Shown here: piece by piece, positions 23,882 through 31,068 of the stretch
Layout: each line of letters starts with the position of its first letter
Numbering within the stretch: position 1 is the first letter of the stretch
IMG/VR virus record: IMGVR_UViG_3300017971_000622
DNA length: 31,161 bases
Direction: 5' to 3' (one strand)
Origin: a virus
Program-made: the position numbers and the translations under genes
The notes under the pieces: generated by a model
Told to the model about the DNA's origin: nothing
The model's database searches: none
Seen by the model: the letters and a program-made list of their open reading frames with translations, nothing else

Positions 23882-25006
23882 TTATGCGGCCACCGCATCG
23901 GCCCATTTACCATCAAACTTCTTGCTCCCCTTGTTTCCAACTACCGCCGGAGCGGCAACGTACATCTCTTCAAGCGCCGGGTAGACATCCTTGGGCCTTA
24001 CCCTGACATAGAACCTGACAACCTTGCCATCGTCCACAACATCAGCGCCATGCTCAACAGCCATGTCCTTGACTGCCTTTACGCAATAGCCCCGAGAGCT
24101 GTTGTAAACCATCTCGACTTTTCTCTGCGCCTTGCCGGGCTTCGAGTACATCCTCCGTACCCGGTAGACAGCCCAAGTCTCGGTCGCCAGCCTGTCCTCG
24201 AAAGACCTGACTGCCTCCTCGTTGCCGTCCTTCCTGACACAGTCCTCAACGCTCTTGCTGGAGTAAAGGGTCATCCGGGGGTTCAGCGAAACACTTACCC
24301 GCTCCATGAACATCGCTTCGGCGGCTCCCTCCGGCTCCTCACGGTACCGGGCCATGCAGTCATCCTTGCCATTGGAGAACGGACAGAAAGTGCAACAGGA
24401 CTTGGCCCATGGCTCCCCGAAGGTCTCCTCAAGCCAGTCTTCGCACTTCTTCCGGCCCCAGCCCCAGTCAACCAGAGGATACTCGCTTGAGCGGTTCTCC
24501 CCCGAGTAGGACTGGTCACGCTCGACCCTGAACATCTCATCCGCATTGAAACCCATGACATGCCTGAAAGACTCATCACCGACCAGCTCATCAATCAGAC
24601 TGTCCAGAGGAAATCCCTTCCACTTCAGGGAGCACCGGCGATTGTTCTTGGCTGACTGGGGAACAGTTCCAGCGGCCAGCATCTCATCGCTCAGCTTCCA
24701 CTTGGGGTTGCCGCTTATGTGGCACTCATAAGGCTCGTGGGTATCTGAGAGGGTCAGGACGCCGTCGTAGCGGCTTGGCCCACCCCGAGCTACCTGTATC
24801 CACCTGACACCGTTCTCACGCATCAGGGGCAGGATGTGCGCTTCAACAAGCGCCTTAGTCCGAGGAAACTCATTACCGACCTGAGCGGTTATCACGGTCA
24901 AGTCGGACAGGTCAAAGTCCCTGCTCTCCGGCTCAAGAAGCCAGCGAGCAAGGATTGCCGAACTGTCAACTCCCATCCCAAAACTCAATATGACCTTCTT
25001 CGACAT
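23882..25006 (-). CDS. PAPS reductase-family (PP-loop ATP pyrophosphatase-like) protein with Cys cluster SCCTFCPF
   Basis: ORF 23882..25012. ATG at 25006 is preceded by AGGAGAGAG. N-terminal ILSFGMGVDSSA is a PP-loop SGGxDS variant. Confidence 0.55.
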   Translation of the reverse strand: MSKKVILSFGMGVDSSAILARWLLEPESRDFDLSDLTVITAQVGNEFPRTKALVEAHILPLMRENGVRWIQVARGGPSRYDGVLTLSDTHEPYECHISGNPKWKLSDEMLAAGTVPQSAKNNRRCSLKWKGFPLDSLIDELVGDESFRHVMGFNADEMFRVERDQSYSGENRSSEYPLVDWGWGRKKCEDWLEETFGEPWAKSCCTFCPFSNGKDDCMARYREEPEGAAEAMFMERVSVSLNPRMTLYSSKSVEDCVRKDGNEEAVRSFEDRLATETWAVYRVRRMYSKPGKAQRKVEMVYNSSRGYCVKAVKDMAVEHGADVVDDGKVVRFYVRVRPKDVYPALEEMYVAAPAVVGNKGSKKFDGKWADAVAA

Positions 25007-25380
25007 TACCACTCTCTCCTGTCATGAAGTGGAACCGGGTACCGGGCGGGGAAGCGGCTGTCACACGTCGAAATGAACGTGCCTCCGTCCATCCTGCCCG
25101 AATTGTCAATGTTGCCTTCCTCATCAACCGGGTAAGCCGTCAAGTAAGGCTCGCTCCCTCCGAACAAGTGCCTCTTGACCATCGCCACCGCCGGGGCATC
25201 CTCATCGGCCTCGAAAATCTCGGGCACGTCGGGGAAGTCCGGGCTTGGCACCAGCGTCGCCTTGTCATGAAAATCACTCAATCCACCAGCGGCGCACCCC
25301 TTAAACAAGGGGTTCTTGAAAATCTCAACTGTCAGGCCTTTCATTCTCTTTCCTCCGTCTTTTGTCTCATTTGCTCTCAC
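25006..25380 (-). CDS. Hypothetical small protein (MRANETKDGG...), N-terminus and 5' region paralogous to the 25422..26435 gene
   Basis: ORF track. 1-nt TAATG overlap with the downstream gene. Confidence 0.45.
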   Translation of the reverse strand: MRANETKDGGKRMKGLTVEIFKNPLFKGCAAGGLSDFHDKATLVPSPDFPDVPEIFEADEDAPAVAMVKRHLFGGSEPYLTAYPVDEEGNIDNSGRMDGGTFISTCDSRFPARYPVPLHDRREW

Positions 25381-25386
25381 AACATC

Positions 25387-25422
25387 CTATTGCAAAAAAG
25401 CGCTCGAAATCCGGAAAAATCT
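25387..25422 (-). promoter_or_regulatory. Conserved promoter-like motif (copy 4 of 6)
   Basis: CTATTGCAAAAAAGCGCTCGAAATCCGGAAAAATCT. The following ~45 nt, including the start codon, are also similar to copy 5. Confidence 0.5.
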
Positions 25423-28989: not shown

Positions 28990-29000
28990 CAGAAAAAATT

Positions 29001-29690
29001 TCAAGAAACCGTATAGCCTGCGGCCCTGATACAGTCAATCACCGCATCCATATTCATCACCACTCGCTGATGGGTAAGGGTAATTTTGCCATAAAGAACA
29101 CGAATAGTCTTTTTACCATGTTTTTCAAAGGCGTCTCCCTCGGGAACAGCCCACAGTCCTTCCCCATCACGTACGTCCATCTGCACTGGTGTCTTGGTCA
29201 CATATTTGTAACTTGACTCAATAAGCAAACAGAGGGCGTTCAATTGATTCGTGCCCATTTCCTCCAAGGGTAAAAAACTTCCATCTGGAAGTGCGTAAGG
29301 CAAGCCATACCGATTAATATCAGCGGCATTTGAACAACGAGCAAAAAGACGCTTGTGCTTCAGATTGGAACGAAAGCGACTCTGCATTCTGGTCTTAAAT
29401 GCCTTGCCCATTTTTTTCTGAGAAAGGGCATAAATGAATGGAACAAGGTGCAACTTTGATGCCAAATCGCCGGGCTTAAATTTGTAATCCACAACAAGCC
29501 ACAGCGCCCTAACCCAGACATCATTTTTCTCATAGAGGTGTTCCTGCAACTGCTCCAATTCAGTCCGTGTCAGTTCTTTGCTTGCCTCGTTAAGAATTTT
29601 GACCAATTCTTTTATCGCCTCTGCCACCCCGTTGTTGGCTTTCCGTATTACCGTCTCCATGCGCCGTATGTAGCTCCTATGTGTTTTCAT
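29001..29690 (-). CDS. Hypothetical protein, 229 aa (lower-GC cassette)
   Basis: ORF track. Composition shift relative to upstream DNA. Confidence 0.45.
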   Translation of the reverse strand: MKTHRSYIRRMETVIRKANNGVAEAIKELVKILNEASKELTRTELEQLQEHLYEKNDVWVRALWLVVDYKFKPGDLASKLHLVPFIYALSQKKMGKAFKTRMQSRFRSNLKHKRLFARCSNAADINRYGLPYALPDGSFLPLEEMGTNQLNALCLLIESSYKYVTKTPVQMDVRDGEGLWAVPEGDAFEKHGKKTIRVLYGKITLTHQRVVMNMDAVIDCIRAAGYTVS

Positions 29691-29712
29691 ACCATCTCCT
29701 TCTGTGTTTGAC

Positions 29713-31068
29713 CTACGCTACTATCTGTAGATTTGTTTTTCTTACTTCCTCCAACGCCAACTCCCATGGCAATTTTGTGTTGGATATTTTGAGATATGCA
29801 TCTCTCATCTCTATTTCATTAGATGTAAACCTCTTGCTTTTCTTCATTATGACAGTGTCGGCAGATTTGTTCCTATAGCTCGTGGAAGAACCCTTGCCAA
29901 GTCCCCTCTTCGCAAAAACGATGGCATAAAATGGAACTGCGCTTCGGCCCTTCGAGAGTGCCGCATAATTAAAAAAACCATGCAATACAGCTCTGGCAAA
30001 ACGACGTGCCTCAAAAGCCACAAGCTTGCCCTTGTCGTATTTTGTTGAGATGGACTCTCCTTCTTCTGTCATATACAGAGCAAGATATGCGACTTCACCA
30101 AGGGCCTTCATGCCATTGCTGGAGTGAAGTATGCTATAGAGAGAATCCTCCGCCTGAATAATAGCTTCTCTGATTTTCTCTGCTTTGTCTGATGAGAGTT
30201 CTGACAATACTTTCATGCCTTCCTCTAAGAGGTTGACAATTTCGTTGTGATAAACACTCAAAAATGAAATGCCATTGTCGAACATTTTTTCGAAATAGAG
30301 TAGCTTGTCGTATTTGGATTTTACGGGGCCAAGGTTAGTCAGCTTGCTCAAACAATCCTTAACAGAGCCAAGAGTTGGAGCACTTGCTTCATCACCCTGT
30401 TCGACTCTTGGCTCATAAGGAAGGGATACGGTCTTGTAACCAATTAAGTCGGGGTCAGCCAGCCGCACAGCTATTAAAGAATCCTTACAAGTGCTCACAC
30501 ACTGTCTCTTCTGGTCACTGTCCTTCTGCACGTTTGCGATAGTATCTAACACATTACGAGAAGACTTTTCCAATAAGTCTTCCTTGCGTGAATCATTCAT
30601 GACAGAAGCAGACCTACGAGCATTTTCAATGGAGTCTTCTCGATTCATTTCTATTGGAATTTTCGAATCAAAGCCATAAAGCAATCCCACGAAAGCGCAT
30701 CTGTGCCTGCCTGCCAATAAGTGATTACTGAGAAGGTTGGGTATCTCAACAATCTGCACAGCATTAATAATGCCTCCCCTGCTTATGGCGTCTACGGCTA
30801 AGTCGAGACACTTGGAAATTTTAAGCCTTGCATTTGGTGGATGACACTCATTAAGCTCATCACGATGATTCTTCCTCAGATACCTGCTCGCACTCTCCAG
30901 TCCCTTGGCAGGAATGATACAGTCGTAATCGTCAATAAAAGACAATTCGCTTAACTTCTCTCGTTTTCTGTGAGGATGTCGTGTCAGGAGTGACTCCAGA
31001 GGGGGTAGCTTCTTTAGATGAGTCTTCTTTAACACCATTCTGATGAATTCTTCATTGCCTTTACTCAT
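29713..31068 (-). CDS. Hypothetical protein, 451 aa; possible DGQHR/ParB-like motif (LAGRHRCAFVGL)
   Basis: ORF track. Lower GC. The motif assignment is tentative. Confidence 0.4.
   Translation of the reverse strand: MSKGNEEFIRMVLKKTHLKKLPPLESLLTRHPHRKREKLSELSFIDDYDCIIPAKGLESASRYLRKNHRDELNECHPPNARLKISKCLDLAVDAISRGGIINAVQIVEIPNLLSNHLLAGRHRCAFVGLLYGFDSKIPIEMNREDSIENARRSASVMNDSRKEDLLEKSSRNVLDTIANVQKDSDQKRQCVSTCKDSLIAVRLADPDLIGYKTVSLPYEPRVEQGDEASAPTLGSVKDCLSKLTNLGPVKSKYDKLLYFEKMFDNGISFLSVYHNEIVNLLEEGMKVLSELSSDKAEKIREAIIQAEDSLYSILHSSNGMKALGEVAYLALYMTEEGESISTKYDKGKLVAFEARRFARAVLHGFFNYAALSKGRSAVPFYAIVFAKRGLGKGSSTSYRNKSADTVIMKKSKRFTSNEIEMRDAYLKISNTKLPWELALEEVRKTNLQIVA

Follow-up and report, generated by a model that had tools for sequence, protein, structure and literature searches.

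Two distantly related PP-loop proteins in a possible accessory arm of an environmental phage genome

Viral genes for 3′-phosphoadenosine-5′-phosphosulfate (PAPS) reductase, or cysH, are among the auxiliary metabolic genes most often reported from viromes, where they are read as sulfur metabolism without experimental test; PMC13369170 is one virome paper that treats them so. IMG/VR virus record IMGVR_UViG_3300017971_000622, a stretch of 31,161 nt that is part of a genome and is called the window below, carries two genes of this appearance, ORF337 and ORF376, in the region 23882-31068, together with ORF451, the gene of a ParB-like protein. The locus raises the question whether these three genes form one nucleic-acid modification cassette, as an earlier note on the same DNA had proposed, and what the two PP-loop proteins would act on. 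We read the studied 7.2 kb as a mosaic accessory (counter-defence/nucleic-acid-modification) arm, made of four independent transcription units and located in the early part of the genome of a large environmental phage, and we give this reading about an even chance of being right.

Gene layout and transcription units

All credible genes of the window are encoded by the minus strand, and its GC skew is negative over the whole length. Minus-strand open reading frames (ORFs) were verified at 23882-25012 (376 aa), 25006-25380 (ORF124), 25422-26435 (337 aa) and 29713-31068 (451 aa). The phage collection gave no match when 22000-31161 was compared with it by Megablast. From the upper to the lower coordinates, the region contains the following features:

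31105-31134, minus: promoter-motif copy TTCCGGATTT-N12-CGCAATAG, upstream of ORF451
29713-31068, minus: ORF451, 451 aa; predicted ParB/Noc/KorB-like N-domain and all-helical C-domain; no Pfam, PHROG or NCBIfam match
29001-29690, minus: ORF229, 229 aa; apparently conserved downstream partner of ORF451; no significant family match
28962-28989, minus: sigma-70-like promoter candidate TTGACT-16-AATAGT ahead of Nmnat, from a consensus scan alone
27937-28920, minus: bifunctional Nmnat (cytidylyltransferase-like) and Nudix protein, NatV-like, the second NARP2 enzyme, 327 aa; NF003786 2.4e-19, NUDIX 3.5e-18
26538-27959, minus: Nampt/NadV-like nicotinamide phosphoribosyltransferase, the first NARP2 enzyme, 473 aa in public gene calls; the longest ORF reaches 28007 (489 aa)
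26497-26522, minus: strong intrinsic terminator directly after Nampt; 10-bp stem with 7 G-C pairs, T7 tail
26442-26471, minus: promoter-motif copy ahead of ORF337, within the 70-nt repeat 26408-26477
25422-26435, minus: ORF337, 337 aa; PAPS_reduct-family PP-loop protein; PF01507 7.5e-12, phrog_424 7e-33; probable start GTG 26408
25387-25416, minus: promoter-motif copy ahead of ORF124/ORF376, within the 70-nt repeat 25353-25422
25006-25344, minus: DUF8317 small protein, 112 aa from ATG 25344; PF26991 (precomputed), phrog_6045; first gene of the ORF376 unit
23882-25012, minus: ORF376, 376 aa; divergent PP-loop protein; no Pfam match; phrog_424 2.4e-15
23562-23906, minus: ORF114, 114 aa; phrog_9437; follows ORF376 in its unit

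The genes starting at 25380 and 26435 had been described in the earlier note as sharing paralogous promoters, 5′ leaders and first residues. The likeness of the upstream DNA is real, as 25353-25422 and 26408-26477 form a 70-nt direct repeat with 83% identity. This repeat holds the promoter-like motif TTCCGGATTT-N12-(C/T/A)GCAATAG, and its two copies are two of six exact-core minus-strand copies in the window, with upper coordinates 11203, 16384, 18282, 25416, 26471 and 31134. Every exact-core copy is on the coding strand and ahead of a gene, and the third one of the studied region precedes ORF451. When a single mismatch is tolerated, the 10-mer of the motif matches 11 times compared to 2.0 expected, and none of 100 shuffles reached 11. 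Judged from this distribution, the motif is a phage-wide promoter-like element, not a peculiarity of the two genes, although the copies ahead of ORF337 and ORF124 additionally share about 20 bases of leader. The shared first residues (MRxNET) are probably untranslated 5′ leader and do not speak for a paralogous N-terminus, as both genes begin, in the public gene calls, only after the shared stretch: at ATG 25344 (preceded by GGAGGA) and GTG 26408. The six-copy motif may mark one temporal class of transcripts.

Based on the terminator (26522-26497), the candidate promoter (28989-28962) and the motif copies, the region reads as four transcription units. In the first, a phage promoter would drive ORF451 and its partner ORF229. 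The second would be an operon of Nmnat/Nudix and Nampt, termed NARP2, with its own promoter and terminator. The third would consist of a phage promoter and stand-alone ORF337, and the fourth of a phage promoter followed by the DUF8317 gene, ORF376 and ORF114.

The two PP-loop proteins

The PP-loop and cysteine motifs reported for ORF376 and ORF337, as well as the AGRHR motif reported for ORF451, are all present at their reported places. ORF337 has a canonical SGGKDS loop at residues 29-34 and CYYLGWGRCSCAAC at residues 236-249. The search against PF01507 that the earlier note had recommended gave 46.1 bits, above the gathering threshold of 22.5. ORF337 has more than 4900 homologues, the best 120 of which are 60-75% identical. 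SGGKDS, C76, C147, C246 and C249 are invariant across 34 homologues; C37 and C334, the latter within the C-terminal GESCGP tail, are near-invariant. Of the cysteine pattern C-x7-C-x-C-x2-C proposed earlier, only the final CxxC (C246 and C249) is conserved in the family; C76 and C147 complete the invariant set.

Neither protein behaves as an ordinary CysH, which agrees with the earlier note. In the CysH/APS/PAPS-reductase models (APS, adenosine-5′-phosphosulfate), ORF337 scored below every cutoff (NF002537, 31.5 bits against 154; TIGR02055, 27.4 against 235; TIGR02057, 16.7 against 254; TIGR00434, 12.8 against 165), and its matches are confined to residues 173-250; ORF376 matched none of these models. 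The suggested resemblance to DndC amounts to 32.1 bits against a cutoff of 290.4 (TIGR03183, residues 142-227 of ORF337), and that to QueC found no match with PF06508 or TIGR00364 in either protein. PADLOC gave partial matches of ORF337 to BrxP (2.7e-13), DndC (2e-9) and SspD (5e-6), all around residues 141-270. Searches of PDB sequences by phmmer and by profile returned nothing meaningful for the two proteins.

ORF376 is the more unusual protein. It carries SFGMGVDS at residues 10-17 and SCCTFCPF at residues 205-212, and it has no Pfam match at an expect value (E) ≤0.1 and no NCBIfam match. At least 350 homologues were found at 40-56% identity, none of them with a Pfam domain. Invariant in the family are G14 of the S-x-G-M-G-V-D-S loop, C127, C207 and C210. 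The AlphaFold (AF2) model of ORF376 has a predicted local distance difference test score (pLDDT) of 92.6, and Foldseek found weak global matches of this model to PP-loop enzymes. The modelled PP-loop domain appears divergent and closest to PAPS/APS reductase and TtuA; an extra α/β domain is located at the C-terminus (∼280-376).

BLASTP between ORF337 and ORF376 is not significant. Their profiles could be aligned by hhalign with an E of 0.023, which placed the PP-loops, C127/C147 and GFNADE/GERAEES in register. The hallmarks of the PP-loop superfamily, a Rossmann-like α/β fold and an N-terminal SGGxDS loop, are found. We suggest that ORF337 and ORF376 both belong to the PAPS-reductase-like branch of PP-loop proteins, in which they are distant relatives and not close paralogues. 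Their conserved cysteine sets look like the C...CxxC type of members with a [4Fe-4S] cluster, such as APS reductase and DndC, and we infer iron-sulfur (Fe-S) binding from this likeness.

Neighbouring genes were compared at 21 loci of ORF376 relatives, 18 from IMG/VR after dropping duplicates and three from genomes or metagenomes. A second PAPS-reductase-like gene is nearby at seven loci (directly upstream in L024, L025 and L032), a C5 DNA methylase at five (directly downstream in L029, L031 and L034), DpdA at four, DUF5131 at three, and Mom (in an Oscillochloris prophage) and ParB_N-HTH at one each. These neighbourhoods are the best evidence for action on DNA, and they are circumstantial. Neither BLAST clustering nor phmmer identified any small partner gene that is conserved immediately upstream of the ORF376 relatives; DUF8317 recurs in the window and L009 only.

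The neighbourhoods of ORF337 relatives are variable. At 80 IMG/VR loci, no neighbour family was kept beyond close relatives, and among 150 immediate neighbours the C5 DNA methylase, with seven cases, is the only recurrent annotated family (DUF5131 and ParB_N occur once each). In Pseudoalteromonas phage KB12-38, the ORF337 homologue abuts a C5 methylase, and another PAPS reductase gene and a gene annotated as DndB are located within 8 kb. In locus L012, homologues of ORF114 and ORF337 are 1.5 kb apart.

The ParB-like pair and the NARP2 operon

ORF451 has its AGRHR motif at residues 119-123. A 5.8-billion word-indexed search returned only ORF451 itself, whereas HMMER, run exhaustively, brought up 33 remote relatives, with 29% identity and an E of 5e-23 for the best of them. 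Within the family, G120 and R121 of S-G-R-H-R are invariant, and the box-III-like N158, R161 and E167 are near-invariant. No Pfam or NCBIfam model matched ORF451 at E ≤0.1, including ParB_N, DGQHR and DndB (TIGR03233, TIGR03187); one of the 34 family relatives matches PF02195, at 0.0017. The best PDB match of the family profile is Noc (E 0.065), with GRHR falling on GERR and AN-SR on ENLQR. The AlphaFold model (pLDDT 89.9) gave a clearer picture: the top 12 Foldseek matches in PDB are all Noc, ParB or KorB, with probabilities of 0.8-1.0, and PadC, sulfiredoxin and BrxU follow lower. GxxR is in register with the ParB/Srx fold. Taken together, these observations indicate that ORF451 is probably a ParB/Noc/KorB-like, nucleotide-binding and DNA-binding protein; of the ParB/DGQHR likeness claimed for it, the ParB half is borne out by the model and the DGQHR/DndB half is not.

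Downstream of the closest ORF451 homologue (P0242, in L050) lies a gene homologous to ORF229 (27% identity, E 9e-13), and because of this order we regard ORF451 and ORF229 as a likely conserved pair. The pair coincides with a low-GC islet. The AT-rich 3′ block noticed earlier is real, GC being 0.435 at 28921-31161 and 0.53 in the remaining window, where no other 1-kb window falls below 0.488. ORF451 and ORF229 make up a low-GC two-gene module of GC 0.43-0.46. Two independent contigs, 100% identical to the last 4.6 kb of the window, extend it by 2071 nt and 660 nt and agree with each other. GC of this extension is 0.49-0.54, so that the low-GC islet comprises ORF451 and ORF229 only. The extension belongs to the same phage, lies past window position 31161, and encodes two DNA methyltransferases directly upstream of ORF451:

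L054 135-1268: N6_N4_Mtase (SPPY)
L054 1368-1946: MT-A70 methyltransferase (DPPW)

The arm thus appears to include genuine genes for DNA modification, though of the classical kind.

A shorter subfamily of ORF451 relatives was found in 14 IMG/VR loci (L036-L049), and this comparison covers that subfamily only. There, in large environmental phages, the ParB-like gene is part of a conserved replication module in the order SSB, UvsX-like protein, exonuclease, kinase, SbcD-like nuclease, ParB-like protein, unknown protein and DNA polymerase. The DNA polymerase of the module is 1200-1800 aa in size. ORF229 is not similar to the gene downstream of the shorter ParB-like genes. The ParB-like/ORF229 pair is a new small family, and the presence of its relatives in replication modules of phages is interesting in view of recent work on the CTP (cytidine triphosphate) switch of ParB proteins.

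Between the PP-loop genes and ORF451 lie two genes, 26538-28920, that are absent from the earlier note. The Nampt protein matches PF04095 and PF18127, NF006629 with 572 bits (cutoff 405), and phrog_448 with 1.7e-155. For 27937-28920, the Nmnat models stay below their equivalog cutoffs, so this protein is assigned at the family level. A phage Nampt together with an Nmnat, as found in these adjacent genes, is what defines NARP2. The name was given to the pair of Vibrio phage KVP40, and NARP2 was shown experimentally to let phages overcome defences that deplete nicotinamide adenine dinucleotide (NAD+) (bioRxiv 10.1101/2024.02.11.579819). The NARP2 of the window would rebuild NAD+ from nicotinamide and phosphoribosyl pyrophosphate and thereby blunt NAD+-depleting host defences. 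It is a counter-defence marker for an otherwise unannotated phage. Immediately upstream of both NARP2 start codons is a 28-nt repeat (27967-27994 and 28924-28951, 93% identity), which includes the ribosome-binding site and on the minus strand reads TCCAAGATGCGATGATGCAAAGGAGGAG at the Nmnat copy.

The earlier note had considered an acquired defence island as an alternative. We rejected it, since both NARP2 and the phage promoters suggest a counter-defence or accessory region of the phage itself.

Possible substrates and comparison with known systems

In the mechanism that we propose, the PP-loop enzymes would use adenosine triphosphate (ATP) to adenylate an oxygen of a nucleic acid, which is most likely the DNA of the phage; substitution by a sulfur or nitrogen nucleophile at the Fe-S/cysteine site would follow. 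The product would be a covalent modification that aids restriction evasion, beside the methyltransferases whose genes lie just upstream. The analysis shows the domain families, the conserved residues, the layout of the transcription units and the gene neighbourhoods; that the two proteins bind Fe-S, use ATP, act on DNA and counter restriction is what we infer. A more far-reaching reading would make the ORF376 family, either by itself or together with a PAPS-reductase-like protein such as ORF337, a new phage enzyme of DNA modification that depends on ATP and Fe-S and makes a modification undescribed in DNA (for example base thiolation or amidation, or a DndD-free phosphorothioate) beside C5 methylases or DpdA. 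We regard this reading as tentative and rather unlikely. If true, the widespread viral cysH/PAPS reductase genes would be anti-restriction DNA-modification enzymes, not sulfur-metabolism genes.

Several points weigh against our main reading and the mechanism proposed with it. Fe-S ligation in both proteins is read from conservation only, and the S-x-G-M-G-V-D-S loop of ORF376 is non-canonical, which makes its ATP use uncertain. Guilt by association is moderate, as the neighbours of both PP-loop families are mostly unannotated small ORFs; the neighbour loci are phylogenetically non-independent, and the methylase counts are raw, without background frequency. ORF337 relatives have no conserved neighbour, which fits a stand-alone enzyme with any substrate. 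We found no paper testing a phage PAPS-reductase-like protein. The window being part of a genome, absent partner genes could lie elsewhere. Finally, the tRNA, tmRNA (transfer-messenger RNA) and Ro60 genes of the window make RNA substrates a live alternative.

According to that alternative, ORF337 and ORF376 would be Fe-S-dependent tRNA thiolases or amidating enzymes (TtuA/NcsA/TtcA/TilS-like) that serve the translation-related RNAs of the phage. Three cysteines ligate the catalytic [4Fe-4S] cluster in TtuA/NcsA, and ORF376 has exactly three invariant cysteines; a tRNA-Met(CAT), a tmRNA and a Ro60 homologue are indeed encoded in the window. However, the profiles place both proteins with PAPS_reduct/phrog_424 and not with ATP_bind_3, their cysteine order is C...CxxC as in APS reductase instead of CxxC...C as in TtuA, and what recurs among the annotated neighbours are DNA-modifying enzymes (C5 methylase, DpdA, Mom), not tRNA genes. 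We consider RNA modification rather unlikely.

We see little chance that the region is an integrated Dnd- or Dpd-like cassette, in which ORF451 would partner both PP-loop enzymes in the style of DndB-DndC or DpdB/QueC, for phosphorothioation or 7-deazaguanine modification. The ParB-type fold of ORF451 is in keeping with such a cassette, and so are the partial similarity of ORF337 to DndC, BrxP and SspD, the gene content around the ORF337 homologue of KB12-38, and the DpdA (four loci) and ParB_N (one locus) genes near ORF376 relatives. ORF451, however, shows no similarity to the DndB of KB12-38. The DndC score is about 32 bits against 290, and QueC, DGQHR and DndB models do not match. ORF451 and the PP-loop genes are in separate units with NARP2 between them, ORF451 has its own partner ORF229, and none of the 14 loci of the shorter ORF451 subfamily has an ORF337/ORF376 relative or any PP-loop gene within 8 kb, the gene being in replication modules instead. 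Phosphorothioation needs a P-loop NTPase partner (PMC12914056; PMC12707154), and the DpdA transglycosylase is the signature protein of 7-deazaguanine DNA modification (PMC10516641). The earlier note had advised a search for such partners; a Pfam scan of the remaining ORFs of the 31-kb window revealed no DndD/SMC-type ATPase (DndD/SspC/BrxC), cysteine desulfurase (dndA), DndE/SspB, TGT/DpdA, QueD/E, FolE or methylase.

An equally slim chance is left for the PP-loop proteins acting on a small molecule or protein, by QueC/Cap9-like conjugation or by destruction of a defence signal, as anti-defence effectors like NARP2. The PP-loop genes do adjoin NARP2, a proven class of metabolic counter-defence, and ORF337 relatives stand alone in variable accessory regions; against this, we found no specific similarity to QueC or Cap9, and neither experiment nor context points to a particular ligand. 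That the two genes are auxiliary metabolic genes, CysH-type PAPS/APS reductases that boost host sulfate assimilation, is highly improbable: this usual virome annotation can draw on the PF01507 match, the PAPS reductase PHROG label and the near-invariant E-S-C-G-P tail of ORF337, which may resemble the C-terminal ECGLH catalytic cysteine of CysH, but the equivalog models reach only 13-32 bits against 154-254 and only residues 173-250, ORF337 keeps the canonical ATP-type SGGKDS PP-loop that true PAPS reductases have lost, ORF376 matches neither Pfam nor NCBIfam, no other sulfur-assimilation genes are nearby, and the neighbours are DNA-modification genes.

A DNA-modification and counter-defence theme for the region is plausible. 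The neighbours of the relatives and the two methyltransferases past the window end uphold this part of the earlier note, whereas its single cassette gives way to separate units. For the cysH annotation, the two proteins offer a testable reason for re-examination: both fail the CysH tests, the PP-loop is of ATP type, the cysteines appear to be of Fe-S type, and the recurrent annotated neighbours are only DNA-modifying. The ORF376 family, which has more than 350 members and a confident structure model but is not covered by Pfam, is a defined target in the search for a new nucleic-acid modification.

Other features of the window deserve description. The tmRNA is complete (15201-15578, minus strand; Rfam RF00023, 135.9 bits), with the tag peptide AKVINFPGVMAPAMAA. 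The tRNA-Met (anticodon CAT) is at 11287-11363 on the minus strand; it is closely followed downstream by a promoter-motif copy (11174-11203) and, at a greater distance, by the Ro60 gene. The Ro60 homologue (8366-10174, minus strand, 602 aa) matches TROVE at 1.2e-19, the Ro60 vWA domain weakly, and phrog_850. Rfam identified no Y RNA near this gene (7600-17100, E ≤0.1). A homologue of the Ro60 gene is also found near the ORF376 relative in L023. The 563-aa protein at 11717-13408 (minus strand) has a major-vault-protein shoulder (3.2e-21), Vault_3 and SPFH/Band_7, which is unusual for a phage. A small acyl/peptidyl-carrier-type protein is encoded at 14616-14888 on the minus strand (PP-binding, 5.6e-08); a synthase that could be its partner is not obvious in the window. 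Two paralogous families, both on the minus strand, were also observed: seven small ORFs (671-970, 1757-2050, 2047-2406, 2410-2928, 3003-3323, 4389-5000 and 4994-5374) and three large ORFs (18287-20197, 20565-21545 and 21868-22917), with an HELMH (HExxH-type) motif in 21868-22917.

Compared to Dnd, Ssp and BREX-4, which combine a PAPS-reductase protein with a P-loop NTPase, a DNA-binding subunit and a cysteine desulfurase, the window lacks this combination, as it lacks the DpdA of Dpd systems. ORF337 belongs to the same superfamily as DndC, SspD and BrxP and has an ATP-type PP-loop and conserved cysteines; different from them, its match is partial and about ten-fold below the DndC cutoff. Sequence identity to the assimilatory PAPS/APS reductases (CysH) and the [4Fe-4S] tRNA thiolases TtuA/NcsA is 8-15%, and the hidden Markov models of these families gave no match; ORF376 differs from them in its additional C-terminal domain and its genomic context.

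Closer relatives are the PAPS reductase-like proteins of phages (PF01507/phrog_424), such as ASV43984 of KB12-38 and Orf84 of coliphage 186, since ORF337 and ORF376 both match phrog_424. ORF337 is 50% identical to ASV43984 over 96% of its length, with the PP-loop and cysteine pattern in common, whereas ORF376 is too divergent for Pfam and has the extra C-terminal α/β domain.

Like the CTP-dependent DNA clamps ParB, Noc and KorB, ORF451 has the ParB N-domain fold in its model, with G-R-H-R at the position of GERR and A-N-x-S-R at that of ENLQR. It keeps the N and R of box III found in ParB CTPase clamps; the box-III glutamate is replaced, and no ParA-like gene was seen. Different from ParB, DndB and DpdB, its C-terminal half is another, all-helical domain, and it has its own conserved partner in ORF229. 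The closest correspondence to a known system is that of the NARP2 operon, which has the same two-gene architecture and domain content as the KVP40 pair (NadV Nampt and NatV Nmnat/Nudix), in adjacent and co-oriented genes; the window pair is known from homology, and the activity was demonstrated for the pair of KVP40.

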